Origin: Armatimonadota bacterium
Lineage (GTDB): Bacteria > Armatimonadota > UBA5829 > DTLH01
DNA: 64,000 bases
NCBI GenBank assembly: GCA_039679675.1
Contig: JBDKUN010000031.1
Span: 957-64,956, forward strand
Direction: 5' to 3'
A program made the position numbers and the translations under genes. Below are positions 8,561 to 37,441 of this stretch, piece by piece (within the stretch, counting starts at the first letter, position 1; each line of letters starts with the position of its first letter). The notes under the pieces were generated by a model. It did not search any database. It had not been told where the DNA came from and saw nothing but the letters and a program-made list of their open reading frames with translations.

Positions 8561-8740
8561 GTGAGTGCAACGTCATCACGAATGCCCACAACGTCATGCT
8601 GAGCTTGACTCAGCATCCAGGAAAAGAATGGACCCTGAATCAAGTTCAGGGTGACGTCTTTGTCGTCCAGAATGACGTGCTGATTGCGCTGGGTGGCGTA
8701 TTTGCTGTTCAGAGTGACGTATAATTCTTGCAAGAGTGAA
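8561..8740 (+). repeat. Palindromic modular repeat element, copy A (3' of the HAD hydrolase gene)
   Basis: 'acaacgtcatgctgagcttgactcagcatccaggaaaagaatggaccctgaatcaagttcagggtgacgt...aagagtgaa' carries two perfect hairpins. Homologous to 46454-46643 and to the cores of the inverted-repeat arms at about 20040 and 21400. Confidence 0.7.
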
Positions 8741-11650: not shown

Positions 11651-11704
11651 TTGTCGTCTCCTTTATTTATAACTCAATAGACTCCGATAATGGGAACCAC
11701 GGTA

Positions 11705-13843
11705 TCAGTTACTCAACTCTTTCTCTAGAGCTTCTTCCCAAATTTTGTCTACACCCATCCAAGCCGTATAGATTGATGGAGCTTTCGGGTCGAATGGCGC
11801 GAGCGAAGTAGCCTGAGTTATGGGAAAAGTGATCTGTGCCCCGTCGAGAGTGAATATAGCGGATTTTTCCCCGATCTCAACCAGTTTCGCGCCTTCCAGG
11901 GTTTCTCCTACCTTTAATATGCGTTTTACGAGTTTATCTCCTATTTGAGAATACATGATTGCCTTAGTTACGTTATCATCATCATGCTCTCTCCTGCCGG
12001 AATAGTTCCATTCTGCAAGCGATTTCATCACAGTAAGCACCTGCGGCTGTGTAGACGCTGGATTATCAACAGCTTTAGGGGCAGATTGAGCGGTTTTATT
12101 ATTGACCCCCGGTACCGGTAATTGAAGATCGAACGGTAATGTTGTCCCATCGACAAAGCCGAATGTAAATGTTATGAAGTGGTAATTGCCATTCTGGGAG
12201 CCTCGGTCATCAATACTGAAATATGAAGGCTCAGGGAGCAAGTCTACTGCAGTTGCAACACTTCCCAATGCCTCATAGAACAGATCCTTTTGCTTACTTC
12301 CCAATACTGTGAATGAAACACCTCCATTACAGGCACTTTTACGCCGATGAGGACTGAGAGAAGCATATAGCTTTATAAGCGCGCTATTGAGTTTCGCATA
12401 ATATATACCTGTAGCTACTATACCTTTCCCTGCTAAACTTGTAATTGCTAAATCTGTCGGTATATTTTCTGGTAAGGCATTTAGCTGTCTCCAATTCAGC
12501 AATGAGACCACCTCTGCCAAACCATCGAGATCGAATATACCGCCGGTTTGAGCAGCAATAGCTCGGAGCTTATTTATAGTAGGCAGTGGTATGTTTTCAG
12601 CAAGTTTATAAGTGAAATGTCTGGGAATGAAGATTATCTGCCCGTCCTGATAAGCCCAGACATAATCACACAGGTTATCTGCTACCTGGTCCAGCGCAAA
12701 TCCGAGTTGCGTGTTATCAGCAATGGTTTCCCCTCGTGGACCGGGCTCAAAAGCAATGAATGAATACTCTTTTTGTTTGCAGATATCCTGTATGATTTTT
12801 ATGCACATGTCCTGAGGCTTCAGACCGCTTACCTTGACATCAGGAGCGTTCCTCAAGCCGAACCTGGGAGGGTTTTCCGTTAGACGTGTTTCTTTTTCTT
12901 TTTCCTTAATATCCATTAGTATATCGAAGAGATAATCTTCTTTTTCCTGTAAATCTTTGATAGCCTCTGTAGAGATACTCTTTGCACGTAATAGAGATAA
13001 GCGAGATGGATGATAATTAGAATACTTGGAGCCCATGACATAAAACAGACAATAATCAGACAATGGATCATTGGATTTGATGGTTACAGAAAATCCGCCC
13101 ATATCATAACCGGTAAGCTGTAAAGTCCCGGTGTTAATAAGCACTTCCTCCAGTTCTTTCGCGCTCGGAGCACTTGTGCCATCCCGTTTTTTATGCTTAT
13201 TGGCTGACCTGTATATCATCCCTCGAATAATATTGTCCAGGAGATTTTCTTGCATAGCTGCAGGTAGATCACGGACATTCATTCTCAAACCCTGCGGGCT
13301 GAGGACCTGGTTCATCTGCTCATTATTCAAGCTAACAATCAGTTCTACTGCTACGCGAAAGCAGGGTGTGGTAAGGTCATAGACGATTTTTGGGTCTTTC
13401 GCTGCAAGAGACTGAAGTCCGTCTTTAGAGAGAGCCAGTGCTGCTCTATACTCGGCGAGTTGTTTCGCAGCGTATTGCCTAACTCTTTTTTGATCTTCTT
13501 CATCTGCGGCGTCAGCAAGGTTGCGCCACTTGCTTCTTTCGATGTAGTCCGGTCCGAGCACCTTATATGCGGTCCCATCTGCCGGTTTGATGCTTATCCA
13601 CTGGTATCCAGGCAATAGATCAAGCCCCTGTTCCACCTTACCCGCGTATGAAGGGTCCACATACACCGAGAGTTTGTCTTCGGCTACAGAGTCACTTGCC
13701 CAAAGCTCGATTTTGGATGCAGCCCTGGCCTTTTCAAGAAGATTTATGATGCTGATGCTGTTACTTTTGAGCGGTTCGGCGCTTGCCGGTATGGATGAAG
13801 CAAGTGATAAAACAGATAAGCAGAAAAGCATTACGGTGCGCAT
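11705..13843 (-). CDS. Uncharacterised secreted protein, paralog 2 of tandem triplet
   Basis: 712 aa. Its 5' approximately 400 nt are nearly identical to paralog 1. Its 3' approximately 300 nt are nearly identical to paralog 3. Confidence 0.8.
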   Translation of the reverse strand: MRTVMLFCLSVLSLASSIPASAEPLKSNSISIINLLEKARAASKIELWASDSVAEDKLSVYVDPSYAGKVEQGLDLLPGYQWISIKPADGTAYKVLGPDYIERSKWRNLADAADEEDQKRVRQYAAKQLAEYRAALALSKDGLQSLAAKDPKIVYDLTTPCFRVAVELIVSLNNEQMNQVLSPQGLRMNVRDLPAAMQENLLDNIIRGMIYRSANKHKKRDGTSAPSAKELEEVLINTGTLQLTGYDMGGFSVTIKSNDPLSDYCLFYVMGSKYSNYHPSRLSLLRAKSISTEAIKDLQEKEDYLFDILMDIKEKEKETRLTENPPRFGLRNAPDVKVSGLKPQDMCIKIIQDICKQKEYSFIAFEPGPRGETIADNTQLGFALDQVADNLCDYVWAYQDGQIIFIPRHFTYKLAENIPLPTINKLRAIAAQTGGIFDLDGLAEVVSLLNWRQLNALPENIPTDLAITSLAGKGIVATGIYYAKLNSALIKLYASLSPHRRKSACNGGVSFTVLGSKQKDLFYEALGSVATAVDLLPEPSYFSIDDRGSQNGNYHFITFTFGFVDGTTLPFDLQLPVPGVNNKTAQSAPKAVDNPASTQPQVLTVMKSLAEWNYSGRREHDDDNVTKAIMYSQIGDKLVKRILKVGETLEGAKLVEIGEKSAIFTLDGAQITFPITQATSLAPFDPKAPSIYTAWMGVDKIWEEALEKELSN

Positions 13844-13897
13844 TTGTCGTCTCCTTTATTTATAACTCAATAGACTCCGATAATAGGAACCACGGCA

Positions 13898-16054
13898 TCA
13901 TTCACTCATCTCTTTCCTTACAGCTTCTGCCCAGGCTTTGTCTACACCCATCCAGTATGTATAAAATGATGGTGATTTCGGATCGAATGGCGCGAGCGAA
14001 GTAGCCTGAGTTATGGGAAAAGTGATCTGTGCCCCGTCGAGAGTGAATATAGCGGATTTTTCTCCGATTTCAACCAGTTTCGCGCCTTCCAGGGTTTCTC
14101 CTACCTGTAATATGCGTTTTACGAGTTTATCCCCTATTTGGGAATACATGATCGCTTTAAGCTCATTGTCATCATCATGCTCTCGCCTGCCGGAATAGTT
14201 CCATTCTGCAAGCGATTTCATCACAGTAAGCACCTGCGGCTGTGTAGGCTCTGCCTTATCATCAGCCTTAGGAGCAGATTGAGCGGTTTTACTATTATCT
14301 TTGGGTAACGGCAATTGAAGATCGAACGGCAAGGCTGTCTCGTCGGCAAAGCCGAATGTAAATGTTATGGGGTGATACCTGCCATTTGGGGAATCACGGT
14401 CATCGACACTGAAGTATGAGGGTTCAGGAAGCAAGTCTACTGCATTTACAACTCTTCCCAATGCCTCATAGAACAGGGCTATTTGTTTATTTCCAAATAC
14501 TGTGTATGAGACACCTCCATTACATGCTTTTTCACGCCGGCGTGGACTGAGTGAAGCATATAACCTTACGGCGGGTTCCTTAATATAGTCTATACCTGTA
14601 GCTCTTAGGTCATCCGGTGCATTCTCCGGTAAAGCATCGATCTGTCTCTGATTAAGTAGTGGAACCGCCTCCGCCAGGCCGTCAAGATCGAATGTGCCGT
14701 TGGTTTTCGCTGCAATAGCTCGGAGTTTATTTATAGTAGACAGCGGTATACCTGCAGCGAGTCTATCTTCAAAATGCCTGGGAGCGAGAATTAGCTGATC
14801 ATCCTGGTAAGCCCAGACATAATCACCTAAATAATCACGAAGAATACCCAGACTATCCATCGCCAGGTCCAGAGCATAACCGAACTGCATATCATCGGTT
14901 GCCTTTAATCCACGGTTCCGATAAGGTTCAAAGGCAAAGAGTGAACAGCCTTTCTGGCTGCAGACGCTTTGGACGAATTCCACGCCTCGATAATAGGGAT
15001 ATCCTTCCACTACAGGTTTACCAAGAAGCTGTCTGTCTATCCTAAAATCAGGGGCATTCCTCGAGCCGAATCTGGGAGGGGCTTCTGCAAAACGGGTCTC
15101 TTTTTCCTTTGCCATAGCATCAGTCCACAAGTTAAAGAAATAATCTTCTTCTGCGTTCCGTAAATTCCAGGCATCTTCCTTGGACATGGTCTTTTCTCTT
15201 AGATTCAATACATAAATCCAATAATTATCTGTATATGTGGGGCCTATAATAGATGATTGATACCCTCCAAACAAGGGAACATCCGATCTGATGTCCACAG
15301 TAAACCCGCCCGAACCATAACCGGAGAATTGTAGAGTTCCGGTGTTAACAAACACTTTTAGTAACTCTTTTGCGCTTGGAGCATTAGCACCATATCTTTT
15401 TGCCAGTCTTTTAGCTGGCTCATCCACCATTCCTCGAATCCTACTATCGAGAAACTTTTCCTGTTTATCTGCAGGCAAATCACGGACGTTTACTTTCAGA
15501 CCCTGCGGGCTAAGAATCTGGTTCAACTGCTCATTGTTGAAGTTGGCAAGTAATTCTGCTTCTACACGAGAGGACGGGGTGGTAAGGTTACACACAAGCT
15601 GCGGGTCTGTCTCGGCGAGTGATTGCAGTTCATCGTTGGAAAGAGCCATCGCCGCTCTATATTCGGAGAGGCGTTTTTCCAAAAATTCTCTGACTTTTCT
15701 TCTTTCTTCTTCATCTGCGGCGTCAGCGAGGCTGCGCCACTTGCTTCTTTCGATGTAGTCCGGTCCGAGCACCTTATATACAGTCCCATCTGCCGGTTTG
15801 ATGCTTATCCACTGGTATCCAGGCAGGAGATCGAGCCCCTGTTCCACCTTATCTGAGGATGACTGGTCTACATACACCGAAAGTCTATCTTCGGCTACCG
15901 AGTCACTGGCCCAAAGTTCAACTTTGGATGCAGCCCTGGCCTTTTCAAGAAGATTTATGATGCTGATGCTATCACTTTTGAGCGGTTCAGCGCTTGCCGG
16001 TATGGATGAAGCAAGTGATAAAACAGACAAGCAGAAAAGCATTACGATACGCAT
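13898..16054 (-). CDS. Uncharacterised secreted protein, paralog 3 of tandem triplet
   Basis: 718 aa with the same signal peptide and conserved blocks ('KEKETR..PPRFG.RNAPD', 'DYVWAYQ', 'TINKLRAIAAKTNGTFDLDGLAE', 'ACNGG.S.TV'). Confidence 0.8.
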   Translation of the reverse strand: MRIVMLFCLSVLSLASSIPASAEPLKSDSISIINLLEKARAASKVELWASDSVAEDRLSVYVDQSSSDKVEQGLDLLPGYQWISIKPADGTVYKVLGPDYIERSKWRSLADAADEEERRKVREFLEKRLSEYRAAMALSNDELQSLAETDPQLVCNLTTPSSRVEAELLANFNNEQLNQILSPQGLKVNVRDLPADKQEKFLDSRIRGMVDEPAKRLAKRYGANAPSAKELLKVFVNTGTLQFSGYGSGGFTVDIRSDVPLFGGYQSSIIGPTYTDNYWIYVLNLREKTMSKEDAWNLRNAEEDYFFNLWTDAMAKEKETRFAEAPPRFGSRNAPDFRIDRQLLGKPVVEGYPYYRGVEFVQSVCSQKGCSLFAFEPYRNRGLKATDDMQFGYALDLAMDSLGILRDYLGDYVWAYQDDQLILAPRHFEDRLAAGIPLSTINKLRAIAAKTNGTFDLDGLAEAVPLLNQRQIDALPENAPDDLRATGIDYIKEPAVRLYASLSPRRREKACNGGVSYTVFGNKQIALFYEALGRVVNAVDLLPEPSYFSVDDRDSPNGRYHPITFTFGFADETALPFDLQLPLPKDNSKTAQSAPKADDKAEPTQPQVLTVMKSLAEWNYSGRREHDDDNELKAIMYSQIGDKLVKRILQVGETLEGAKLVEIGEKSAIFTLDGAQITFPITQATSLAPFDPKSPSFYTYWMGVDKAWAEAVRKEMSE

Positions 16055-17037: not shown

Positions 17038-17400
17038 ATGTTTGAAATAACTGTTGAAGAGAAATTCGATGCCGCACACTGCCTTCGCGGCTATCCTGGA
17101 AACTGTGAACGTCTGCACGGGCACACCTACAAAGTGCAGGTCCTCCTTCGCACGCCGAACCTCGATAAAATCGGGATGGCTGTCGATTTCAGATCTGTCC
17201 GGGCGGCTTTAAGAGAAATAATCGAGTCGCTCGACCATACATTCTTGAACGAACTGCCGGATTTTACCGAGACCAACCCAACAGCCGAGAACCTTGCCTG
17301 CTACATATACGTAAAAATGAGCAAAAAATTCGCCAGCCAGGTAAAGAAAGTTACTGTCTGGGAGACTGATTCAGCCGCTGCCAGCTACTGGGAGGAATAA
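17038..17400 (+). CDS. queD: 6-carboxy-5,6,7,8-tetrahydropterin synthase (6-pyruvoyl-tetrahydropterin synthase family)
   Basis: 120 aa with 'CLRGYPGNCERLHGHTYKV' (Cx3HGH Zn/catalytic motif) and a 'DHTFLNE' block. AGGAAGG RBS. The track's longer ORF from 16366 is antisense to the PP2C gene and was trimmed. Confidence 0.75.
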   Translation: MFEITVEEKFDAAHCLRGYPGNCERLHGHTYKVQVLLRTPNLDKIGMAVDFRSVRAALREIIESLDHTFLNELPDFTETNPTAENLACYIYVKMSKKFASQVKKVTVWETDSAAASYWEE

Positions 17401-18263
17401 TGAGCAAATTTCTCGATCTGATCGAGCATAAGCCGGTCATCTGCGACGGTGCGGTAGGCACGGAGATCCACCGCCGAAGCGGCAGGATGGACCAATGCCT
17501 CGACAGCATCAACCTGACCAATCCCGATCTCATCCGCCAAATCCACCACGACTATGCAGCCGCAGGAGCGCAGATCCTCGAAACGAACACATTCGGAGCC
17601 AACCGCATCAGGCTTTCGGCTCATGGGCTTGCCGGTTCTGTAAGAGAGATCAACATGGCAGGCGCGAGAATAGCAAGAGAAGAAGCAAAAGGCGGTATCG
17701 TTGTGGCGGGCTCTATGGGCTCGACGGGAAAGATTCTGGAACCTTACGGCGCGCTTTTGGTAGATGAAGCCCGTGAAGTATTCGATGAGCAGGCCGAAGC
17801 CCTGAAGGACGGCGGAGTGGACGTCATCTTCGTGGAGACGATGGCCGATTTGAACGAGGCCACCGCCGCCGTGAGTGCAGCAAAAGCGACCGGGCTTCCG
17901 ATAGTCGCGCAGATGTCCTTTTCTCAAGAAGGCCGGACTATGATGGGAGTCGACCCTGCGACTGCCGTTCGGACATTCGAGGGACTTGGTGCGGATGTTG
18001 TCGGCGCTAACTGCGGAACAGGGTTCCATGATATGTTAGGTGTGGTACGTGAAATGGTTGCCGTGGCTGCAAGACCTGTCATCGCCCAGCCGAACGCGGG
18101 ATTCCCTCAGTTTGTGGACGGGCGGCTGGTGTATGTCAGTGGACCGGCGTACATGGCGGATTATGCCCGGCAGTTTGCAGATTTGGGTGTAGCGATAATA
18201 GGCGGATGCTGCGGGACTACTCCAGAGCATATCCGCGCTATCGCTCAGGCGCTGGGGAGGTAA
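17400..18263 (+). CDS. Homocysteine S-methyltransferase domain protein (MetH N-terminal/MmuM/YitJ-N like)
   Basis: 'PVICDGAVGTE', 'LETNTFGAN', 'VGANCGTG' and 'IGGCCGTTPEHI' are Hcy-binding/Zn motifs. The start overlaps the queD stop (ATGA) and is preceded by GGGAGG. Confidence 0.7.
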   Translation: MSKFLDLIEHKPVICDGAVGTEIHRRSGRMDQCLDSINLTNPDLIRQIHHDYAAAGAQILETNTFGANRIRLSAHGLAGSVREINMAGARIAREEAKGGIVVAGSMGSTGKILEPYGALLVDEAREVFDEQAEALKDGGVDVIFVETMADLNEATAAVSAAKATGLPIVAQMSFSQEGRTMMGVDPATAVRTFEGLGADVVGANCGTGFHDMLGVVREMVAVAARPVIAQPNAGFPQFVDGRLVYVSGPAYMADYARQFADLGVAIIGGCCGTTPEHIRAIAQALGR

Positions 18264-18267
18264 CTCT

Positions 18268-19137
18268 ATGGCGCTTAGAGACAAACTAGGGAAAGATTTC
18301 GTAACTACAGTGGAGATTGACCCGCCGCGCGGCGTCGCCATCGAGAAAACAATCGGGAAAGCGTCGGTTTTGCGAGGTTTCGATGCCATAAACATCGCCG
18401 ACAGCCCTATGGCAAGGGTGCGTATGAGCCCTGTTGCGCTCGCCCACCTCTTGCGCGAATGCATGGGCATCGACACGATCCTGCATATGACCTGCCGGGA
18501 CCGAAACCTGCTCAGTTTGCAGTCGGACCTTCTTGGGGCTTATGCGCTTGGGGTGCATAACGTGCTTGCGCTGACGGGCGACCCGGTAAGTATCGGGGAT
18601 TATCCGCAGGCGACTGGTGTTTTTGATGTGACGAGCGAAGGGCTGGTGCGGGTCATCAGCCGTTTGAACAGCGGGATGGACCTTGCGGGAAATTCGCTCT
18701 CGGAGCCACCGAAGTTCTGTATAGGAGTGGCGGTCAATCCTGCTTCGAGCGATCTTCCGAAGGAGATAGGCAGGCTGGAAAAGAAGATGGAGGCCGGAGC
18801 TCATTTCGCGCTCACGCAGCCGGTGTATGACCTGGCAGTCCTTGAAAAGTTTGCAAAGTTGGTCGATGGTAGTAAAATACCGGTATTGGTCGGCGTGCTT
18901 CCGTTGAAAAGCTCGAAACATGCCGAATATTTGCATAATGAAGTGCCGGGAATTGATGTCCCGGAGCATATCAGAATGCGTATAAGAAATTCCGACGAGG
19001 AACATGCGCGGGCGACAGGCGTCGATATTGCCGTGGAGTTCCTTCGGAATGCAAAGGATTTGGCAGCCGGTGCATACTTTATGCCTCCTTTTGGGGACTA
19101 TGAGATGGCTGCGCAGATCGTGGCAGAAGCGTTATAG
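18268..19137 (+). CDS. metF: 5,10-methylenetetrahydrofolate reductase
   Basis: 289 aa with 'DFVTTVEIDPPRG', 'INIADSPMARVRMS' and 'TCRDRN' TIM-barrel MTHFR motifs. GGGGAGG RBS. Confidence 0.7.
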   Translation: MALRDKLGKDFVTTVEIDPPRGVAIEKTIGKASVLRGFDAINIADSPMARVRMSPVALAHLLRECMGIDTILHMTCRDRNLLSLQSDLLGAYALGVHNVLALTGDPVSIGDYPQATGVFDVTSEGLVRVISRLNSGMDLAGNSLSEPPKFCIGVAVNPASSDLPKEIGRLEKKMEAGAHFALTQPVYDLAVLEKFAKLVDGSKIPVLVGVLPLKSSKHAEYLHNEVPGIDVPEHIRMRIRNSDEEHARATGVDIAVEFLRNAKDLAAGAYFMPPFGDYEMAAQIVAEAL

Positions 19138-19159
19138 TGCTTAGTTAAGGAATTACATT

Positions 19160-19909
19160 ATGTCTTCACCGACAGCGTTTATATCAGAGATATTTACCTC
19201 GATACAGGGCGAGGGGATTTATACGGGGCGGCCGCAGGTGTTCGTCCGGTTCTGTGGCTGTAACCTGAACTGCGACTACTGCGACACTCCCGCGTCCAGA
19301 GACAGGCAAAAACCGTTCTGTTCGGTCGAAAAGACTCCGGGCAGAGGCGATTTTGCGTATATGCAGAACCCTCTCGTGGTGGATGATGTTGTCGAGGCTA
19401 TCGAATCACTCGCAGTTTACGGAGATGTTTCACTGACTGGCGGCGAGCCGCTCCTGCAGTGTGATTTTCTCGTCAAACTCTTGCCTTTGCTCAGGAGTAA
19501 GGGATACAGAGTCCACCTTGAGACGAACGGGACGAAGCCGGATGAAGTCGCGCGGCTTGCAGGGCAGGTAGACGTGATAGCGATGGACTTCAAGCTCCAG
19601 TCTGCAGCCTGCGTGGGAGATTTATTCGATTTGCATGCGAAATTTCTGAAGGCCGCGAAACGCGCGAAGGTCTTCGTAAAGGCTGTAGTGACGTCTGAGA
19701 CGACGGATGCCGAAATTCGACGGTGCGCCGAGACGATAGCCGGAGCGAAGCCCGTTCCGCTGATTCTGCAGCCGGTTACTCCAGTCTCGGACGGAGGAAT
19801 GAAGCCGCCAGCGCTCCCGCAGCTTCTACGGATGCATGCAATAGCCTCCGAAGAGCTCGACGACGTTCGAATCCTTCCTCAGTTGCACAAGACGCTTGGG
19901 ATAAGGTAG
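19160..19909 (+). CDS. queE: 7-carboxy-7-deazaguanine synthase (radical SAM)
   Basis: 'EIFTSIQGEGIYTGRPQVFVRFCGCNLNCDYCDTP' is the QueE N-terminal signature with the Cx3Cx2C-like cluster motif. Confidence 0.75.
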   Translation: MSSPTAFISEIFTSIQGEGIYTGRPQVFVRFCGCNLNCDYCDTPASRDRQKPFCSVEKTPGRGDFAYMQNPLVVDDVVEAIESLAVYGDVSLTGGEPLLQCDFLVKLLPLLRSKGYRVHLETNGTKPDEVARLAGQVDVIAMDFKLQSAACVGDLFDLHAKFLKAAKRAKVFVKAVVTSETTDAEIRRCAETIAGAKPVPLILQPVTPVSDGGMKPPALPQLLRMHAIASEELDDVRILPQLHKTLGIR

Positions 19910-19982
19910 ATTTTAGGGAACAGGGAACAGAAATTTGGAGTGCGGAAGCGTTAGCTTCCGCTTTTCTATCGACATTCACCAA

Positions 19983-20296
19983 TTTTTGTAGTGGCCGGTC
20001 TCAGTGCCGGCCATCGTCACCGTAGGTGACGGGAGCTCTCATGCTGCACACATTATCTTTGAACTTAGGAGTTTCAGGGTCCATTCTTTTCCTGGATGCT
20101 GAATCTATGGATTTTCGGCCATAGCCGAAAATCTTCCGGGAGAGTTTCAGGTATTACCTGAAACTCCTTAGTTCAGCATGACGTGGTGGTAGTCCAACAT
20201 GACATACCATACGCTTCGGGATTCTTTTCTTCCCGAAGCACGAGTCTCCACTAATCCCTTTTTCGCGCTTCTTCGCGCATTTCGCGATTCAAAACC
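19983..20296 (-). repeat. Left arm of imperfect inverted repeat flanking the HgdB-like gene (approximately 310 bp, carries a 68-bp nested insertion)
   Basis: Reverse-complement aligns with 21293-21556. Shared modules are a 'cgcgaa' triple repeat, a 'cttcggg...cccgaag' hairpin, 'atgtcatgttggac', the 'cgtcatgctgaa..ttcagcatccaggaaaagaatggac' double hairpin and a 'ggtgacgatggccgg..gagaccggccactaca' tail. Confidence 0.75.
20262..20286 (+). promoter_or_regulatory. Three 'ttcgcg' direct repeats at approximately 10-bp phasing immediately upstream of the HgdB-like gene
   Basis: 'tttcgcgcttcttcgcgcatttcgcgattc' ends 30 nt before the ATG. A mirrored set (cgcgaa repeated three times plus one degenerate copy) lies at 21305-21338. 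Confidence 0.4.
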
Positions 20297-20316
20297 TGAC
20301 AACTGATAGCTATAAA

Positions 20317-21288
20317 ATGGAAATCGGAATTACAACAACAATCCCAGTAGAGATAGTCTACGCAGCCGGACATGTGCCGGTGGACCTGAACAATATTTTC
20401 ATAGCCGCTGATGACCCGCAGTCGCTGGTCGTCCGGGCGGAGCATGACGGCTACCCGAGAAACGTCTGCGGGTGGATAAAAGGAATTTACGGCACCGCGC
20501 TCAATAAAGGTATCAAAACCGTTATAGCCGCGGTAGAGGGCGACTGCAGCCAGACGCAGGCGATGATGGAAACGCTCGAAATGGCAGGTGTAGAGATTAT
20601 CCCGTTCGCGTTTCCATACGGTCGGGACCGCGATATGCTCGCGATGCAGCTCCGCAAACTGGCAAACCGCCTCGATGCTGACTGGTCGGAGGTCTATGAT
20701 TGGAAATCGCGGCTGGACGGCATTCGCCGGAAGATTTGGCAGGTCGATGAGCTGACCTGGAAGGACGGAAAGGTCACCGGCCTCGAAAACCATCTCTGGC
20801 AGGTGAGTGCGAGCGACTTCTGGGGCGACCCAGACAAATTCGAGCATGAGTTGGATAGTTTTATCGCCGAAGCAAGCTCGCGCGAGCCGAAAAAGGCGCA
20901 AATACGGCTCGGTTATGCAGGTATTCCGGCAATTTTCAACGACTTGTATCAGCTTCTGGAGGAGCGTGGAACGTCAGTAGTCTTCAATGAAGTCCAGCGC
21001 CAGTTCTCCATGCCGTTCGAGACGGATGACATAGTCGAACAGTACGCGAGATACACCTATCCCTACGACATTTTCGGGCGGATCGAGGATATCAAACGCG
21101 AGATCGAGCGGAGGGAGATCGACGGGCTGATTCACTACACCCAGAGCTTCTGCTTCAGGCAGATTCAAGACCTGATCGTGAGGAACAATATCGACATCCC
21201 GATTCTGACGCTCGAAGGTGAGTCTCCCGGACCGATAGACGCTCGCACGCGCGTGCGGATAGAGAGTTTCGTGGAGATGCTTGGATAG
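20317..21288 (+). CDS. 2-hydroxyacyl-CoA dehydratase / benzoyl-CoA reductase subunit family protein (HgdB/BcrC/BadD-like, PF06050-type)
   Basis: 323 aa. N-terminal 'IPVEIVYAAGHVPVDL' matches the HgdB 'VPEELVYAAGMVPMG' block. C-terminal 'GLIHYTQSFCFRQIQD' matches the 'GLIVFMMQFCDPEE' block. No activator ATPase gene nearby. Weak or no SD. Confidence 0.55.
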   Translation: MEIGITTTIPVEIVYAAGHVPVDLNNIFIAADDPQSLVVRAEHDGYPRNVCGWIKGIYGTALNKGIKTVIAAVEGDCSQTQAMMETLEMAGVEIIPFAFPYGRDRDMLAMQLRKLANRLDADWSEVYDWKSRLDGIRRKIWQVDELTWKDGKVTGLENHLWQVSASDFWGDPDKFEHELDSFIAEASSREPKKAQIRLGYAGIPAIFNDLYQLLEERGTSVVFNEVQRQFSMPFETDDIVEQYARYTYPYDIFGRIEDIKREIERREIDGLIHYTQSFCFRQIQDLIVRNNIDIPILTLEGESPGPIDARTRVRIESFVEMLG

Positions 21289-21292
21289 CAGC

Positions 21293-21556
21293 TAGGTTTT
21301 GAATCGCGAAGAACGCGAAGGAGCACGAAAGACGCGAAAATGGGATTAGTGAATGTCATGTTTCGGGGCGAAAAGCGATCCCGAAGCATAGGGTTATGTC
21401 ATGTTGGACGACCGCACGTCATGCTGAATCAAGTTCAGCATCCAGGAAAAGAATGGACTCTGAAACTCCTTAGTTCAAGGATGATATATGCAGCATGAGA
21501 GATTCCGTCGTCTGCGGTGACGATGGCCGGGACGGAGACCGGCCACTACAGCATCT
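21293..21556 (+). repeat. Right arm of inverted repeat flanking the HgdB-like gene
   Basis: Begins 4 nt after the stop codon. See the left arm. Confidence 0.75.
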
Positions 21557-21563
21557 CTGTTCC

Positions 21564-22910
21564 CTACTCCCTGTTACCTGTTCCCTCTTTCGGCAACAGC
21601 GACAACTGGCGGTTCGTCGCGGAAAGCAGTGCGGCGGCTGCCGCGCGATATGGGTCAGCGTGTTTTACAACCGCGCTTCCGGCGCATGTGCTGCTGTTTC
21701 TCGGTGTAATCAGAGTCGCAATGACCGATACGACCTCTCTGTCATCCCCTGCTTTGAATGTAATCACGTCGTCGATCATAATGCCGTGATCTGCCGGGAG
21801 CGACTTCGACGCCGCCGAAGCAGTTGCCTCTGCAACTAACCTGAGGAGGCTTCGTCCACCTGTCGAATATCCAGTCACGGAGTGGCTGAACTCTGCATCT
21901 CCGAGCGAGAGCAGGACTTGAACCGTAGTCTCAGCCGGGCTCGTAGAGAGCCGGATGGTCTGAATCTTCAGTCTTGTCTGCTGCGCGCGAGGTGTCACAG
22001 TCTGGACAGGTGCCGCCGCCGGTTGTACTGCAGGCGCAGGTTGAGCTGTCTGTAACTCGGCTGGGGCTGGTTTCGCCGCTTCTTCGGGCTTCACAGGCTT
22101 CGATGCGGTGCAGTTCAAGCTCGCATTGGTGATAAGGTCGTCCAGCATCGCAGCCGAGTGAACCTGTTCACGGCCGCCCGACCTCCGGCCTCCGGCCATG
22201 CCGAATGTTGCGCCGATTTTTTCAGGCAGTCCGGGGATTTCAATTTGGGAGATCTTCTCCATGAGCTGCCTGCCGAACTCCGTCGCGTCAGTCGCTTTCC
22301 GGTAGCTGGCAATTGAGAACTCATCCCCTGCGTACCGGCACAAAAAGTCTTTTGCAGGATCGACAGATGACGACAGAACTTCAGCAACGGACTTCAGCAC
22401 ATTATCGCCCATCACATGCCCGTATTTTTTGTTGAATCTTCCGAACGAGTTCATATCGATGAGGATAACGGAAATCTCGAAACCGTGGTCCAGGGCGCTT
22501 ATTCCCCATTCTCTGAACGCATCCCGCCATGGCAGCTTTGTCAGTGTATCGTAGGACTGTCCAAGCTCCGCTACGATGTCGCTTCGGGAGACAATGCCGA
22601 CAAGTTTCCCGGAATCAACAATAAGGAGGTGGCTGTTTCCGCCGACTTTCATCATCTCCGCCGCCTGGAAGACCGGCGTATCCGACGGGACTGCAGTGTA
22701 GTTCTTGTCCATAACGTCCATGATGGACGAATCCGGGCTCTGGCCCAAGAGAGAAGAACAATACAGCATTCCGACAACGGAGTCGTGGGCGTAGACGACC
22801 GGAAGGGCATCTATCCCATGCCCTTTCAGCAGGATTATCGCGGATTTGACTTGTTGCGCCGGACTTATCCATACCACATCGGCGCTCATGACGTCTTTGA
22901 GTGTCTTCAT
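21564..22910 (-). CDS. CBS-pair + GGDEF-domain (variant 'AGDEF') protein with uncharacterised C-terminal domain
   Basis: N-terminal tandem CBS ('VMSADVVWISP...', 'GIVSRSDIV'). GGDEF fold includes 'ILIDMNSFGRFNKKYGHVMGDNVLK...LCRYAGDEFSIAS'. A Pro/Ala-rich linker is followed by an approximately 150-aa unknown domain. Confidence 0.65.
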   Translation of the reverse strand: MKTLKDVMSADVVWISPAQQVKSAIILLKGHGIDALPVVYAHDSVVGMLYCSSLLGQSPDSSIMDVMDKNYTAVPSDTPVFQAAEMMKVGGNSHLLIVDSGKLVGIVSRSDIVAELGQSYDTLTKLPWRDAFREWGISALDHGFEISVILIDMNSFGRFNKKYGHVMGDNVLKSVAEVLSSSVDPAKDFLCRYAGDEFSIASYRKATDATEFGRQLMEKISQIEIPGLPEKIGATFGMAGGRRSGGREQVHSAAMLDDLITNASLNCTASKPVKPEEAAKPAPAELQTAQPAPAVQPAAAPVQTVTPRAQQTRLKIQTIRLSTSPAETTVQVLLSLGDAEFSHSVTGYSTGGRSLLRLVAEATASAASKSLPADHGIMIDDVITFKAGDDREVVSVIATLITPRNSSTCAGSAVVKHADPYRAAAAALLSATNRQLSLLPKEGTGNRE

Positions 22911-27620: not shown

Positions 27621-29015
27621 ATGGACCGACTCAAACGCCGCGCGGTGGTTTCGCTCGCGTCATCATATCTATCACAACTTGGCACTACCGGGGCTGAATT
27701 CATCAGCAAGATCATTCTCGCGAGGTTGATCCTGCCGAGAGAGTGGGGGATTTTTGCTGAAGCGATGCTTGTGGTCCTCATTGCGGATGTATTCACCGAT
27801 CTTGGACTTTCCCAGCACCTCGCGCGGGAGAAAAAACGGCCTTTCGGGAATGTGCTGCTCATCAGAACAGGGCTTTCTTTGCTGGCTATCGGCCTGGTCG
27901 AGCTGTTCGCACCTTATCTAAAAGTTTTCACCCCGGCGCTCATTACTCCTGCGCGTGCGCTCGCTCCTTTGATCCTGATAAAAGCCGTGGGTACAGTCCC
28001 AACCGTCTATGTAGACCGGGAACTGATAGTCCACAGATCGCTCATCCCTCAGTTCGCCAGGCTTGGGCTGAATGCGGCTGTGAGCATATCCCTTGCCGCA
28101 TCCGGCTGGGGGGTGTGGGCGCTTGTTTTGGGCTCGCTCGCCGGTGAAACGGCTTATACGTTGCTCATGTGGGTATCCGTCCGAAAATTGCTCAAAGTCG
28201 AGTTTACTTTTGCTTGTACCAGAACGCTTATTGCGGGAAGCCGCTACTTATTTTTGATAGCCTTGATCGGGCTTCTCCTCCAGCAGGGGGATATTCTGGT
28301 CACCGGAACAATGCTCGACCCGAAAATAGTCGGGCTATACGCGATGGCGCTGATGCTCTGCCAGAGGGTATCGAAAATCGTCGAGACTGCGATCTACCGC
28401 GTCATCTACCCGTTGTTCTGCGAGGTCTCGTACGACACAGACAAACTCGGCCAGATATATAAATGCACCACCCTTGCCATCACTGCGATAGAGACACCAA
28501 TTTATCTCTTTTTACTGTTCCATTCAGGATTTTTCGTTTCCACTCTGTTTGGAGCCAAGTGGATGCCGATGGCGTTGATACTCCAGGCGCTTGCGATGTC
28601 CGGTGTCGTCAACCCATACTCGTCATTCGGTATTGAGGTACTCCGGGCGACAAAGCAGGACAGGATGCTCTTTCTCGCATCGATCTCCGGGGCGCTCACT
28701 CTGATTACAGCCGGGTTTATCCTGACCAGTCGGTTCGGCGCGATGGGGATGGTCGCAGCCAACTATCTGCCGGTCAGCGCGATTTTCGTCGTGATCTCTC
28801 TCTGGCGGATGATCAGAAATCATATAATCGACCTTACCCGAAAGCTCGCCGTTGTCTACATCGTCTCGTTTATCGTCTCCGGCGCGGCATTTTTTTTCAC
28901 AGGAAGTGGCATAACCATGCATTTAGCGGGAATTGCGGCTGTGCTTGTCCTCTGGGTGATTTTTTATAAGTTGTATGGTCTCACAGTCGGAAAGGAGACA
29001 CTGAAATCGCTGTGA
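27621..29015 (+). CDS. Polysaccharide biosynthesis protein / oligosaccharide flippase (Wzx, MOP superfamily)
   Basis: 464 aa with approximately 12-14 TM segments. First gene of a tightly overlapping plus-strand operon. Confidence 0.7.
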   Translation: MDRLKRRAVVSLASSYLSQLGTTGAEFISKIILARLILPREWGIFAEAMLVVLIADVFTDLGLSQHLAREKKRPFGNVLLIRTGLSLLAIGLVELFAPYLKVFTPALITPARALAPLILIKAVGTVPTVYVDRELIVHRSLIPQFARLGLNAAVSISLAASGWGVWALVLGSLAGETAYTLLMWVSVRKLLKVEFTFACTRTLIAGSRYLFLIALIGLLLQQGDILVTGTMLDPKIVGLYAMALMLCQRVSKIVETAIYRVIYPLFCEVSYDTDKLGQIYKCTTLAITAIETPIYLFLLFHSGFFVSTLFGAKWMPMALILQALAMSGVVNPYSSFGIEVLRATKQDRMLFLASISGALTLITAGFILTSRFGAMGMVAANYLPVSAIFVVISLWRMIRNHIIDLTRKLAVVYIVSFIVSGAAFFFTGSGITMHLAGIAAVLVLWVIFYKLYGLTVGKETLKSL

Positions 29016-29899
29016 TGACACCGAAGGTAGCCATAATTGTGCTCGCATGGAACGGCAGGGACGACACTCTCGAATGCCTGAAGTCCCTCGAAGACATCGA
29101 TTACCCGGACTTTCGTGTGATTCTGGTCGATAACGGCTCGACGGACGGCACAGCGGAGGCTGTGAGGTCTGCTTTTCCCGATGTGGAGGTCATAGAGACC
29201 GGACAGAACCTGGGTTTTGCCGGGGGAAACAACACCGGCATCCGCCATGCACTTGATTCCGGGGCAGATGCGGTGCTGCTGCTCAATAACGACACTGTAG
29301 TTGCCCCGGAGTTTCTCTCATCCCTGGTGCAAGTGCTGTATCGTTCGGATGATATAGCGGCAGTTAATCCGCTTATCTATTATTACGACCAGCCTGACGT
29401 CGTCTGGTCGGCAGGCGGTGAGATCGACAGGCGAACAGGTATAGCTTACCAGAGATATGTGGACATTAAGGATGCCGGGCAGTTTAAAGGTGTGACTGCT
29501 GTCGACTATGGAGTCGGCGCGGCGCTTCTCATATGCCGGGAAGCGCTTGAGAAGGTCGGGCTTCTGGACCCGGACTATTTTCTATACTACGAAGAGTCCG
29601 ACTGGTGCTTCCGCGCGAAAGATGCGGGCTACAAGACCATATTTACTCCCGAATCGAAGATCTGGCACAAGGTCTCGCGCGGGTTCGAAGGCAGAAGCGC
29701 CGCGCAGCTTTATTATTTCTGCCGGAACAGGCTGTATTTTCTCAAGAAACGAAGGATGAAGAACTCCAGGCTGCTCAGAATCGCTCTGGTTGATTTTGGC
29801 CGGATGGCAGCATCGATGGCCGTCCGAGGTCATGTGAAATCCAGCCACGCAGTTCTGAGGGGTGTAGTGGATTTCTATCTGGGGCGGATGGGAAAATGA
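29015..29899 (+). CDS. Glycosyltransferase family 2
   Basis: 'VLAWNGRDDTLECLKSLEDIDYPDFRVILVDNGSTDGT' and a DxD-type 'LLNNDTVV'. ATGA overlap with the flippase stop. Confidence 0.75.
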   Translation: MTPKVAIIVLAWNGRDDTLECLKSLEDIDYPDFRVILVDNGSTDGTAEAVRSAFPDVEVIETGQNLGFAGGNNTGIRHALDSGADAVLLLNNDTVVAPEFLSSLVQVLYRSDDIAAVNPLIYYYDQPDVVWSAGGEIDRRTGIAYQRYVDIKDAGQFKGVTAVDYGVGAALLICREALEKVGLLDPDYFLYYEESDWCFRAKDAGYKTIFTPESKIWHKVSRGFEGRSAAQLYYFCRNRLYFLKKRRMKNSRLLRIALVDFGRMAASMAVRGHVKSSHAVLRGVVDFYLGRMGK

Positions 29900-31104
29900 A
29901 GTTGCTTATCATATCCCAATGGTTTCCATGCCCGCCGGTAAACGGCGGGAGGCTGCGGGTGTATCATCTGCTCCGAGGGCTGGCGGAGCGGCATGATATA
30001 CACTTTCTATCGTTCACCCAGGACCAGTCGGACATGGAGCACGTCCACGAGCTTGGCGAGCTGTGCCGTGATGTTATCGTGGTCAAGGGAAGTGACTTCA
30101 AACCTACGGCTGGAAATGCCGTCCGTGCGCTTTTTTCCACGAGGCCGCGTTCCAGTATCGACTGTTGGAGCAGGACAATGGCTCGGATGGTGGAAGACCA
30201 GCTGAATACTCATTCGTTCGATGCTGCGATTGCATTTACGACCAGAGCGGGCGAATATTTGATGCATGCAAGTCTGCCCAAAATACTTGATAACGACAAT
30301 GTCGATACTGCCTATTTTGCGCGGCTTGTTGGGCAGGGCGGCAGTCCATTGGCTAAGTTTAGACGGAAGCTCACATGGGTAAAGGCTGCCGGGTACGAAC
30401 AAAGGTTGGCCGCCGCATTTGATGCCGTAACGGCGGTGTCCGAGGAAGACAGACAGGAGTTGGCAAAGCTCCTCACGCCCGAAAATAGCTGCCGGGCGCT
30501 TCATGTCGTGCCGAACGGCGTCGACCTGGGACTCATGGACTACAAGACTCCCGACTTTGACCCGAAACGCATTATCTCGACCGGCGCACTTACATATCAT
30601 GCCAATTACGATGCCGCAGTCTTTTTTTGCGAGCAAATTTTACCTGGAATCAAGAAGGCTATTTCTGACGCTCGGTTTGTCATAACAGGCGGACATAAAG
30701 AAATAGATATATCGCCGTTTACCGCTGCCGGTGTTACACTCACCGGGTTTCTGGATGATATCCGCCCCATGGTGGCGGGGAGCGCCGTGCTTGTTGTTCC
30801 GCTCAGAATAGGCGGCGGGACCAGGTTGAAGATTTTGGAAGCGATGGCGCTCGGAACGCCGGTAGTAGCGACCACGCTCGGAGCGGCGGGGATCGGGGTA
30901 AGACATAGGGAGACTGCGCTCATTGCGGACGACCCCGATGAGTTTGCGGATTGCGTGGTACAGCTTATGAAAGACCCGGAATTAAGAGGGGAACTTGCGA
31001 AAAATGCCCGTGAACACGTGGCAGCTGAGTTCGGCTGGGAGAGATCGATAGAAGCGATGGAATACGCGCTGAAATCCATAACGGGGCAGGGGAGAAGAAT
31101 ATGA
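29896..31104 (+). CDS. Glycosyltransferase family 4 (GT-B, group 1)
   Basis: C-terminal 'VVPLRIGGGTRLKILEAMALGTPVVAT' is the EX7E-type GT4 motif. Confidence 0.75.
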   Translation: MKLLIISQWFPCPPVNGGRLRVYHLLRGLAERHDIHFLSFTQDQSDMEHVHELGELCRDVIVVKGSDFKPTAGNAVRALFSTRPRSSIDCWSRTMARMVEDQLNTHSFDAAIAFTTRAGEYLMHASLPKILDNDNVDTAYFARLVGQGGSPLAKFRRKLTWVKAAGYEQRLAAAFDAVTAVSEEDRQELAKLLTPENSCRALHVVPNGVDLGLMDYKTPDFDPKRIISTGALTYHANYDAAVFFCEQILPGIKKAISDARFVITGGHKEIDISPFTAAGVTLTGFLDDIRPMVAGSAVLVVPLRIGGGTRLKILEAMALGTPVVATTLGAAGIGVRHRETALIADDPDEFADCVVQLMKDPELRGELAKNAREHVAAEFGWERSIEAMEYALKSITGQGRRI

Positions 31105-37415: not shown

Positions 37416-37441
37416 AATAAAAATAGCAAAGGAGTGTCTGA

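Follow-up and report, generated by a model that had tools for sequence, protein, structure and literature searches.

MITE-flanked composite units exist, for example integron mobilisation units, and the locus described here resembles them in that a single gene lies between two inverted MITE-like copies of ~260–290 bp. It differs from them in that cargo mobility, complete MITEs with two termini and a target-site duplication of the composite were all looked for here and not found.

Several families of intergenic repeats provide closer points of comparison. CGTC-tagged REPs are defined, in the descriptive passages of Di Nocera, De Gregorio & Rocco 2013 (PMC3733652), by a terminal CGTC, a stem of 8–9 bp, a loop of 4–5 nt and a 3-nt tail at the untagged end; the same passages describe 8-bp stems beginning A-T, an organisation in dimers and a location near 3′ ends, and report no dedicated transposase. 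BIMEs of enterobacteria lie mostly at gene 3′ ends and between convergent genes (PMC2817692, PMC3333891). The BOX elements of pneumococci have the architecture boxA-boxB(n)-boxC (Croucher et al. 2011, PMC3049150), and transcribed Correia repeat-enclosed elements of Neisseria fold into hairpins that RNase III can cleave, and they can change how neighbouring genes are expressed (PMC2649163). Here we analyse one locus in the window, a 64-kb stretch of DNA from an Armatimonadota metagenome-assembled genome (MAG), together with its counterparts in related genomes.

The HGD-D gene and its operon

The gene between the repeats is the following.

20317–21288, + strand: HGD-D family gene, 323 aa, identified by its match to PF06050

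The PF06050 profile matches this ORF with E = 2.3e-38 and 133 bits (cut-off 28.4) over residues 7–322, a full-length match above the gathering score, which places the protein in the 2-hydroxyacyl-CoA dehydratase/benzoyl-CoA reductase D-component family. An earlier note on this DNA had described an HgdB-like gene with no activator ATPase or partner subunit nearby, and the profile search bears this out: among 49 of the 53 window ORFs of at least 110 aa, spread over 64 kb, Pfam detected no BcrAD_BadFG activator, no second HGD-D subunit and no transposase or recombinase. The partner subunit and the ATP-dependent activator (BcrAD_BadFG) are also missing from the Armatimonadota loci examined; next to a Thermincolia homologue of HGD-D, a partner subunit/BcrAD_BadFG activator is encoded.

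HGD-D closes an operon composed of QueD, Hcy-S-methyltransferase, MTHFR, a QueE-like radical-SAM gene and HGD-D itself. The order from QueD to the QueE-like radical-SAM gene and on to HGD-D is kept in all Armatimonadota homologues examined, down to 63% identity. HGD-D has its place behind the QueE-like gene in eight independent loci, and its operon position is conserved in L001, L003/L004, L037, L040, L054 and L055. Between the radical-SAM gene and HGD-D there is a spacer of 62 nt in L003/L004 (84% identity), 14 nt in L040 (78%) and 94 nt in L054 (66%), while in L055 (63%) the two genes overlap by 4 nt. In L037 (91%) a GH-like gene lies between them, and the spacer is 21 nt. Arm modules are found in none of the four orthologues at 91–78% identity (L037, L003/L004, L040), whose upstream spacers measure 14–62 nt. 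The protein of the sister genome L001 is 92.6% (~93%) identical to that of the window, with a divergence of 26–28% at four-fold degenerate sites; this amino acid identity, set against 26% four-fold divergence, indicates purifying selection. HGD-D is an old, fixed and resident member of its operon, neither cargo nor a mobile cassette.

The inverted arms

Inverted-repeat search and alignment delimit an arm on each side of the gene, composed of modules designated A to F2.

19987–20297, − strand: left arm, composite repeat cluster F2-F1-E-D::ins63-C-B-A, with the A terminus towards the gene start
21294–21550, + strand: right arm, composite A-B-C-D-E-F1-F2

The right arm occupies the convergent intergenic gap between HGD-D and a CBS-GGDEF gene. 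It starts 5 nt past the TAG stop codon (21286–21288), and 19 nt separate the left arm from the ATG (20317). Collinear inverted pairs of 117 nt at 89% (19987–20103/21434–21550) and 37 nt at 86% (20261–20297/21294–21330) are accompanied by four more of 17–19 nt each. Globally aligned, the arms agree at 219 of 249 positions (88%), setting aside an indel of 9 nt and 63 nt inserted on the left; uninterrupted identity reaches 25 nt at most, and the outer tips form a perfect 16-nt inverted repeat (TGTAGTGGCCGGTCTC). The inverted arms are thereby confirmed as real and far above chance, with limits nearly as first given. An assembly artefact is ruled out because the arms are non-identical and because the bracket also occurs in the independently assembled sister genome and in a separate Logan contig (L002).

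Two further features lie beyond the outer end of the left arm.

19915–19934, + strand: outer 20-mer, an AGGGAAC heptamer tract 5 nt past the radical-SAM stop codon, with 17/20 matches to an inverted copy
19942–19961, + strand: terminator-like hairpin and TTTTCT after the radical-SAM gene, within the 52-nt segment 19935–19986

With the outer 20-mer, inverted similarity extends about 20 nt past the limits first given (19915–19934 against 21553–21572; 0 such matches expected). The inverted copy overlaps the GGDEF stop codon (21564–21566), and this right-hand 20-mer belongs to the coding end of the GGDEF gene. Apart from these two positions, the 20-mer was found in one place, the orthologous site on the left in L001. 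It carries reduced weight as evidence that a segment was duplicated in inverted orientation, since AGGGAAC-type heptamer tracts, which slippage could expand, stand on both sides and the right one is coding. The 52-nt segment 19935–19986 breaks the left side of the inverted repeat, and no copy of it was found elsewhere. No sigma-70-like promoter was detected in either arm by the promoter scan. Rfam assigned the arms to no family at the gathering threshold and returned two chance-level matches at E <= 1.

Modules of the arms

The arms resolve into the following modules.

21294–21343, + strand: module A, right copy, AGGTTTTGAATCGCGAA followed by CGCGAA-type units phased at 9–10 nt (dispersed repeat)
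20249–20297, − strand: module A, left copy, three CGCGAA units, 9 nt shorter than the right copy (inverted-repeat search and alignment)
21341–21388, + strand: module B, right copy, a gggattagtg head and a tttcgggg..cccgaagc hairpin (arm alignment)
20206–20258, − strand: module B, left copy (arm alignment)
21389–21412, + strand: module C, right copy, containing ATGTCATGTTGGAC, present in the two arms only
~20186–20206, − strand: module C, left copy, likewise
21417–21441, + strand: module D, right copy, an intact CGTC-tagged REP hairpin, CGTC ATGCTGAA tcaag TTCAGCAT cca (hairpin scan)
20079–20183, − strand: module D, left copy, a REP hairpin split by ins63 in its loop (arm alignment)
20108–20171, + strand: ins63, a double-hairpin module of 63–64 nt in the left-arm D loop (alignment with the L001 copy)
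21444–21478, + strand: spacer and module E, right copy, the decayed second REP of the doublet (alignment)
20059–20093, − strand: spacer and module E, left copy (alignment)
21479–21520, + strand: module F1, right copy, containing TGCAGCATGAGAG and a small cgtc..gacg palindrome, in the two arms only
~20017–20058, − strand: module F1, left copy, likewise
21524–21549, − strand: module F2, right copy, a GTAG-tagged hairpin, GTAG TGGCCGG tctccgtc CCGGCCA (hairpin scan)
19988–20013, + strand: module F2, left copy (hairpin scan)

Every module named in the earlier note is present in both arms, namely the CGCGAA units, the gcttcggg/cccgaagc hairpin, ATGTCATGTTGGAC, CGTCATGCTGAA..TTCAGCATCCAGGAAAAGAATGGAC, CTGAAACTCCT and the GGCCGG..CCGGCC tail. 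The left-arm insertion that it placed in the loop of the first hairpin does lie there, ~20108–20171 falling within the loop of the D hairpin. Its description of the arms as modular hairpin units of the MITE/REP type, one inserted into the loop of another, is correct.

The CGCGAA units of module A lie at 21305, 21314 and 21333 on the right, with a CACGAA at 21324, and at 20262, 20272 and 20281 on the left. Module A is dispersed, being found at 12 or more further sites distributed over three Armatimonadota MAGs, either singly or combined with other hairpins, and its TTGAATCGCG end points to the nearest gene, often touching the stop codon. In L036, L026 and the right arm of L001 it forms the terminal inverted repeats (TIRs) of complete elements; those of the L036 element (5646–5974) are 81 nt long at 78% identity, and the A-type TIRs of L026 and the L001 right arm measure 15–21 nt. 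TIRs bounding a short non-coding element characterise MITEs, and on this sequence evidence module A is the terminal inverted repeat of a putative MITE-like palindromic family. Each window arm bears a single A terminus. No consistent direct repeat is visible at the A junctions in the inspected sequences, and no transposase was identified. About half of 32 genome matches to the A pattern come from unrelated phyla with similarity over at most ~40 nt, and these were taken as chance. The right-side module A is identical at 42 of 43 positions between the window and L001, against 72% at four-fold sites, and the module is conserved equally at solitary sites lacking a partner. Conservation so far above that of neutral DNA indicates some constraint, for which a pure “junk” reading has no account. 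Both genomes keep the inverted A pair beside the gene, as a functional stem would likewise predict.

Modules D and E have all the hallmarks of CGTC REPs: the tag, the sizes of stem, loop and tail, and multi-copy dispersal with inverted dimers. Each of the five window hairpins that start with CGTC has a perfect 8-bp stem, a 5-nt loop and a CCA tail, and the CGTC hairpin pattern matches the window 10 times, against a mean of 1.4 in shuffled sequence. Canonical D/E doublets at 8592–8656 and 46495–46559 are both intact and, with the two arm copies, make up the set in the 64 kb; more occur in L001 and L026. L001 has a further doublet ahead of the operon promoter, at a site that is empty in the window, so that the element is polymorphic for presence and absence. 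A relaxed D-hairpin pattern found 12 copies in the metagenome MTKW01, which share just the 35-nt hairpin with the arms and are consequently uninformative on the composite; the exact 25-nt D core had no match in the metagenome scan. No RAYT, the single-copy Y1/HUH transposase that in REPIN systems lies between copies of its own REPs, is encoded among the scanned window ORFs.

Another dispersed hairpin unit, ins63, recurs at L001 2534–2598 with 95% identity, there in the loop of an E hairpin, and partially at window 58739–58786. Position and orientation of the L001 copy relative to the flanking CTGAA and TTCAG match those of the left-arm copy, so that both full copies occupy an identical REP-loop position. 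In both arms the module E loop, ACTCCTTAG (ACTCCTWAG), equals the 3′ end of ins63; judging by this match, the loop appears to be what an ins63 copy left behind, an excision-like scar of a deletion between direct repeats of CCTGAA.

Among the remaining modules, the left-arm version of B matches dispersed copies in L023 and L026, and C and F1 have no copies outside the two arms in the sequences searched. The GTAG-hairpin scan found the F2 hairpin at the HGD-D locus only. In the right arm of L001 an orthologous F2 copy supplies the GGDEF stop codon. The form of F2 fits that of a REP, and it is a candidate, though unproven, dispersed GTAG REP seen at a single locus.

Comparison with described repeats

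In the CGTC tag, the 8-bp stem starting with A-T, the 5-nt loop and the CCA tail, D and E match the CGTC REP dimers as described in the passages cited above (PMC3733652). Like those dimers and the REPIN doublets, again as the relevant passages describe them (Bertels & Rainey 2011, PMC3116915), they form intergenic inverted doublets with a short conserved spacer and are present or absent between close relatives. Unlike both, the doublet here sits within a longer element of ~170 nt with TGACGTG half-sites, and its E member is decayed in the arms. The host also differs, Armatimonadota being a phylum not mentioned in the descriptive passages on CGTC REPs, the species tables of that paper aside.

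The arms share with BIMEs the organisation of an intergenic mosaic in which palindromic units in alternating orientation are combined with short motifs (PMC2817692, PMC3333891). They differ in that their motifs are unrelated, in that they enlarge through modules nesting in the loops of others, and in that they include the long non-palindromic terminus A with its phased units of 9–10 nt. Pneumococcal BOX, RUP and SPRITE elements (PMC3049150) are likewise modular, with terminal modules enclosing a variable internal number, and are likewise non-autonomous and intergenic with predicted stable RNA structures. However, there is no sequence relationship to BOX, the lineage is another one, and the fixed grammar of BOX contrasts with an internal content that is highly variable between copies here. 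Correia elements (PMC2649163) are similar in being MITE-like and gene-adjacent with inverted termini, but their hairpin forms within one element of ~100–150 bp, whereas the duplex proposed here would join two elements 1 kb apart, and no promoter or IHF-site features were identified in the arms.

Origin of the arms

The only examined genome that shares the arms is the 93% sister L001, where the module set differs and A on both sides is common; just ~110 nt of its two arms are complementary. In the window, both arms carry the E scar and the private modules C and F1, and they are therefore sister copies of one composite. The arms differ from each other by p = 0.12, while the window and L001 differ by p = 0.28 at four-fold sites; if the arms evolve neutrally, as this argument presumes, the lower value places a duplication or gene conversion after the split of the two genomes. 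A third full-length copy of the composite was absent from the loci searched, which leaves duplicative transposition of the whole unit unproven. The ancestral copy is the left one for the outer 20-mer but the right one for the GTAG hairpin, and this conflict makes both the direction and the mechanism of copying ambiguous.

We consider it probable, at roughly 0.78, that the arms are repeat-filled intergenic gaps beside a resident HGD-D gene and that they are sister copies homogenised after the split. In the ancestor of the MAG and its sister species, small non-autonomous palindromic repeats would have colonised both gaps beside HGD-D, among them the A-terminus MITE-like family, the CGTC REP doublet D/E, the 63-nt double-hairpin module and the GTAG hairpin. 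Such repeats would nest within each other and turn over fast. The composite would already have been assembled and scarred when one flank was copied inverted onto the other after the split, whether by duplicative movement of the composite or because the inverted A modules already in place seeded recombination or template switching. The bracket would then be a by-product of repeat colonisation and homogenisation rather than a device for moving, flipping or packaging the gene. Effects of the arms on expression are presumably incidental; they could uncouple HGD-D from the upstream genes of the operon or provide a multi-hairpin 3′ UTR or terminator between convergent genes.

Alternative explanations

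The earlier note had allowed that the bracket might reduce to coincidental insertions of a repeat. Part of this holds, the modules being dispersed, no other pair having been seen and most orthologues being arm-less, but the arms are sister copies rather than independent insertions. Independent construction, module by module, from a shared pool of site-specific repeats is accordingly very doubtful: mobile modules do show site preference, with A beside gene ends and ins63 at one REP-loop position, but the arms hold seven modules in identical order and orientation, have the E scar and the private C and F1 in common, and diverge uniformly at ~12%. A composite transposon, in which two inverted MITE copies captured HGD-D and move it, is the least probable reading. 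The inverted MITE-like flanks and their perfectly matched outer tips are what it would call for, but the place of HGD-D after the QueE-like gene is stable to 63% identity with or without arms, the family terminus A faces the gene and not outward, and no direct repeat is common to the flanks caatttt/TGTAGTGG and CCACTACA/gcatctc. The genome scan revealed no second locus with an arm-gene-arm unit, and the scanned window ORFs include no transposase. Varied cargo contexts, outward termini with a target-site duplication and a distal terminus at the arms are all absent. The mobilised cassette or gene-capturing MITE pair of the earlier note is thus contradicted by arm-less relatives with the same operon position, and on its question whether arm pairs flank other genes, the modules were found dispersed singly. 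Another of its proposals, a template for homologous inversion, is physically possible and unsupported. In this reading, RecA- or recombinase-dependent flipping of the 1-kb segment would turn the gene on or off relative to operon transcription. The gene does lie between inverted repeats of ~260 nt that are 88% identical, and homogenisation after the split would be expected from recombination between them. A perfect match of 25 nt is marginal for RecA-dependent recombination, however, and this is the longest in the arms; the ORFs scanned across the 64 kb include no recombinase or invertase, the gene keeps its ancestral operon-sense orientation in the window, L001 and all relatives, and no contig with the opposite orientation was found. 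With neither a nearby site-specific recombinase nor both orientations, we regard such a switch as highly unlikely.

The remaining reading concerns RNA. If read-through or arm-internal transcription placed both arms on one RNA, a duplex of ~250 bp could enclose the ORF, and either its processing by a double-strand-specific RNase, comparable to that of 16S/23S rRNA stems, or its occlusion of the start region would separate expression of the gene from that of the operon; we judge this very improbable. Folding does allow a 5′/3′ UTR duplex, as the earlier note had suggested, with a global minimum free energy of −765 kcal/mol against −575 for local structures only and 227 left-arm bases paired to the right arm if the two are co-transcribed, but nothing was found in its support. 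This energy gain is a trivial result of 88% complementarity, and each arm folds strongly alone (left region, z = −9.9), which makes local hairpins the likelier outcome while the RNA is being made. The left arm is preceded by a terminator-like hairpin and yielded no promoter-like site, and the L001 arms are complementary over ~110 nt only. The innermost inverted A pair persists in both genomes, the right A nearly unchanged, and transcribed Correia repeats offer a precedent as RNase III substrates (PMC2649163); A is, however, equally conserved at solitary, partnerless sites, and the absence of arms from orthologues at 91–63% identity indicates that the gene has no need of such a stem. Somewhat less probable again is the more specific version in which the A modules and the homogenised distal modules form a gene-enclosing stem on read-through transcripts that excises or silences one cistron. 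If true, this stem would be an mRNA analogue of rRNA processing stems, with recruited selfish hairpin repeats as its raw material.

Implications

The arms are an ordinary kind of element, REP/MITE-like, in a new phylum. Their analysis removes a false lead, since a gene “exactly bracketed” by inverted repeats of 260–300 bp resembles a cassette or switch and comparative synteny says otherwise. The locus also illustrates the assembly and remodelling of intergenic DNA in an Armatimonadota lineage that has not been cultured. Repeat clusters of this kind can fragment MAG assemblies and yield spurious small ORFs, and where relatives have translationally coupled genes, they can push the two apart by hundreds of bases that include terminator-like hairpins, which makes them relevant to operon inference in these genomes.

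Inverted arms around the HGD-D gene

The HGD-D gene, last in an operon that begins with QueD, is bracketed by two inverted repeats (arms), laid out in the window as follows:
19987-20297, minus strand: left arm
about 20108-20171, within the left arm: ins63, a separate double-hairpin module
20317-21288, plus strand: HGD-D gene, 323 aa
21294-21550, plus strand: right arm

The earlier note had described this bracketed gene and its modular arms from the sequence alone, and the arms were borne out by both a repeat finder and a global alignment. The former returned collinear inverted pairs at 19987-20103 with 21434-21550 (117 nt, 89% complementary) and at 20261-20297 with 21294-21330 (37 nt, 86%), with four more pairs of 17–19 nt between them. 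In the latter, the reverse complement of the left arm matches the right arm at 219 of 249 positions (88%); the alignment is interrupted twice, where the left arm has a single insertion of 63 nt and where the CGCGAA region has an indel of 9 nt. The right arm begins 5 nt past the TAG of the HGD-D gene, and the left arm stops 19 nt ahead of its ATG. Outward from the gene, each arm reads A-B-C-D-E-F1-F2; every module listed in the earlier note was found in both arms, and its description of them was good. Because the arms are non-identical and an independently assembled sister genome (locus L001) has the same bracket, an assembly artefact is excluded and the arms are genuine. The L001 locus was also recovered in a separate short-read contig.

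The HGD-D gene and its operon

The ORF encodes a full-length PF06050 protein (E = 2.3e-38). An NCBI entry of an Armatimonadota MAG has the identical sequence (100%), and homologues of about 323 aa number in the thousands. On the 5′ side of the gene lie those for QueD (TIGR03367), for homocysteine S-methyltransferase and MTHFR, which correspond to the two halves of PRK08645, and for a QueE-like radical-SAM protein; on its 3′ side is a CBS-GGDEF gene in convergent orientation. As the earlier note had claimed, neither activator nor partner subunit is nearby: when 49 of the 53 window ORFs with 110 aa or more were scanned against Pfam, none proved to be a BcrAD_BadFG activator, a transposase, a recombinase or a second HGD-D subunit. 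The radical-SAM gene precedes HGD-D in every Armatimonadota relative examined.

HGD-D identity to the window protein and upstream context at compared loci
L001: 93%; same five-gene operon, long spacers
L037: 91%; glycoside-hydrolase-like gene between radical-SAM gene and HGD-D, 21-nt spacer
L003/L004: 84%; 62-nt spacer
L040: 78%; 14-nt spacer
L054: 66%; 94-nt spacer
L055: 63%; 4-nt overlap

Arm modules are absent from all loci of 91–78% identity. Between the window and L001 the HGD-D protein is 92.6% identical while 26% of four-fold sites have diverged, and the gene is therefore under purifying selection. Together with the conserved operon position and the arm-free relatives, this shows HGD-D to be a long-standing operon resident and the arms to be a lineage-specific addition to both adjoining gaps. 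The earlier proposals of a mobilised gene cassette and of a gene captured by a MITE pair are contradicted by this constant position, with arms or without, and are ruled out. In L037 the inserted glycoside-hydrolase-like gene (985-2010, 341 aa) occupies the gap between the radical-SAM gene and HGD-D, so the same gap has been hit by different insertions in different lineages.

Across Armatimonadota, a stand-alone 323-aa HGD-D lies directly 3′ of QueD and the QueE-like radical-SAM gene (window 17038-21288; L001, L004, L040, L054, L055, L056), with the split homocysteine S-methyltransferase/MTHFR pair between QueD and the QueE-like gene in the window's clade. The activator ATPase is absent at the Armatimonadota loci; a Thermincolia homologue adjoins BcrAD_BadFG. 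The best NCBIfam match is the double-cubane reductase family, under that family's cut-off. The setting suggests an uncharacterised role tied to 7-deazaguanine or folate metabolism.

Elsewhere, the window carries three tandem paralogous ORFs of 711–718 aa (9515-16054, minus strand; DNA about 73–74% identical), with no Pfam match in the two of three scanned; a polysaccharide-synthesis/glycosyltransferase cluster (27621-38110); a HydABC-type [FeFe]-hydrogenase cluster (46687-51019); and several PEP-CTERM proteins (43566-45407, 51456-52187 and 56789-57724).

REP hairpins and ins63

Modules D and E have the form CGTC, 8-bp stem, 5-nt loop, stem, CCA. In the window, inverted doublets at 8592-8656 and 46495-46559, both intact, together with the D of the right arm account for the five perfect CGTC hairpins. 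PMC3733652 describes CGTC-tagged REPs as a tag, an 8–9-bp stem starting A-T, a 4–5-nt loop and a 3-nt tail, and as mostly dimers near 3′ ends, for which no dedicated transposase is known. By the features compared, D and E are CGTC-tagged REP dimers whose form agrees with that account. Twelve copies of the D/E-type hairpin were counted in a single unrelated metagenome assembly, where the rest of the arm modules do not accompany it. On the timescale separating these genomes the doublet is mobile: the window presents a clean empty site at the place, directly upstream of the operon promoter, that a REP doublet occupies in L001.

These doublets (window 8560-8740 and 46480-46650; L001 2476-2700) make up the 5′ portion of a longer dispersed element, about 170 nt in all, which goes on with several TGACGTG half-sites and closes with a TATAAT-like box and then 'cattaagagtgaac'; an outward-facing promoter and a small RNA are both conceivable. 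Directly after the 46.5-kb doublet, 'gtgctcccatccatgatgac' is perfectly duplicated in tandem (46560-46600).

A 95% identical copy of ins63 lies at L001 2534-2598, where it occupies the E-hairpin loop of the doublet upstream of the operon, and its position and orientation relative to CTGAA|...|TTCAG match those in the window, where ins63 sits in the left-arm D loop. Part of ins63 recurs in the window at 58739-58786. Deletion between CCTGAA direct repeats apparently leaves a 9-nt ins63 footprint, with scars at 21460-21472 and 20065-20077. Residence in CGTC-REP loops and this footprint are reminiscent of hairpin-targeting single-strand transposition, with no transposase identified.

In form, F2 would be a GTAG-tagged REP (GTAG TGGCCGG n8 CCGGCCA); copies of it were found at the HGD-D locus only. 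In L001 its GTAG provides the stop codon of the GGDEF gene, a behaviour of GTAG REPs described in PMC3733652. C and F1 were found nowhere outside the two arms.

Module A and a MITE-like family

Module A consists of AGGTTTTGAATCGCGAA followed by CGCGAA-type units at a phasing of 9–10 nt, which suggests a protein-binding array. A scan of the genome collection with TTGAATCGCGAANNNCGCGAAG gave six further sites in the sister genome and others in two Armatimonadota-like MAGs. These dispersed sites resemble the arms only in A, at times with the 'ggtggaga' head of B; A borders a group of unrelated hairpins, its TTGAATCGCG end toward the nearest gene, and in many cases it abuts the stop codon or provides it (as in 'TAGgttttgaatcgcg' at locus L012 and 'ttgaatcgcgaaTGA' at L029). 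Where an element is complete, A makes up its terminal inverted repeats: 81-nt A-type termini surround a REP doublet at L036 5646-5974, and L026 and the L001 right arm have shorter A-type termini at both ends. Module A is thus the outermost part of a palindromic, MITE-like family. Since both A ends in the window aim at the gene, HGD-D lies between two elements and not within one. The L036 element, from another Armatimonadetes MAG, is a fully palindromic 329 nt with a second inverted layer and a central REP doublet; it is located between divergent genes and may be the intact form of the family.

Copies of A in different genomes (window 21294-21343 and 20249-20297; L001, L012, L013, L019, L023, L025, L026, L029, L034, L036) are 87–98% identical, compared with 72% at four-fold sites of the two closest genomes. 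This conservation is far above that of neutral DNA, whether the sister genomes are compared or the copies of more distant MAGs. A purely neutral view does not explain it; some constraint acts, either through the propagation of A itself or through host-protein binding.

Intergenic DNA of the clade has recurrent short tandem heptamer tracts, (CTGAYAR)n beside module A and gene ends and (AGGGAAC)n behind the radical-SAM stop codon (window 20298-20316, 21289-21293, 19915-19934 and 21553-21590; L001 5960-6000; L003 2355-2400; L025 7795-7830).

Origin of the two arms

In both arms the E loop is ACTCCT(T/A)AG, the exact 3′ end of ins63, in place of the canonical TCAAG. It is what deletion of most of an inserted ins63 between its two CCTGAA direct repeats would leave. 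Because the arms also agree in module order, in the decay of the 3′ half of E and in having C and F1 to themselves, they are sister copies of one composite, assembled and scarred before copying. They differ at 12% of aligned positions, below the 28% found at 536 four-fold sites when the operon of the window is compared with that of L001; under neutral evolution, the arms would have had their last common ancestor after the split of the two genomes. This fits L001, which has A on both sides and otherwise a different module set. The L001 flanks have their own shared module pair (37 nt, 92%), and orthologous A modules (right-right 42/43) are closer to each other than are the two copies inside one genome.

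Inverted similarity reaches 20 nt past the arms (19915-19934 with 21553-21572; 17/20 matches, 0 expected by chance), in a sequence otherwise found only at the orthologous left site of L001. This hints that locus-specific DNA was copied along with the arms, a case that we do not rest here as both tracts are AGGGAAC-type heptamer repeats. The right (AGGGAAC)n tract encodes the final CBS-GGDEF residues, and this C-terminus is not the same in the two genomes (..KEGTGNRE in the window, ..KEGAGKM in L001).

The most economical history would have an inverted pair of A-terminated elements already in the common ancestor and, later in the window lineage, the distal part of one flank copied onto the other. 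Either the composite itself would have moved, or the inverted copies would have recombined or served for template switching. The bracketing symmetry is explained by such duplication or homogenisation of two repeat-filled flanks.

Does the bracket act?

The earlier note had also raised an RNA stem of paired arms enclosing the gene. On one RNA carrying both arms, the arm-arm duplex would indeed dominate the minimum-energy fold (-765 vs -575 kcal/mol), but this gain follows automatically from arms that are 88% complementary. The left region folds strongly by itself (z = -9.9), a terminator-like hairpin and T-tract separate the radical-SAM gene from the left arm, and no sigma-70-like promoter was detected in the arms; nor is the duplex conserved, with only about 110 nt complementary in L001 and no arms in other relatives. 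We consider such a stem very improbable. The unit fails the tests for an invertible switch: the longest perfect match between the arms is 25 nt, no recombinase was found among the window ORFs scanned and the ancestral orientation is found at every locus. The unit also fails the tests for a MITE-flanked composite transposon.

We conclude that the bracket is a by-product of repeat colonisation. Its most probable effects are incidental: HGD-D would stand apart from the upstream genes, whereas relatives keep them tightly coupled, and the two convergent genes would have a 3′ region of several hairpins between them.

Relation to known systems

For an RNase III-sensitive repeat hairpin beside a gene, the nearest precedent is that of the Correia elements, but their hairpin forms inside one element (PMC2649163), whereas the duplex proposed for HGD-D pairs two arms. 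The A-terminated elements work like MITEs, though the A junctions show no consistent direct repeat and no transposase was found among the window ORFs scanned, and the whole clusters work like BIMEs or pneumococcal BOX elements, that is, as modular intergenic mosaics. To our knowledge, no such repeats have been described in Armatimonadota; the arms themselves, as nested REP/MITE-like repeats, are a feature of an ordinary kind.
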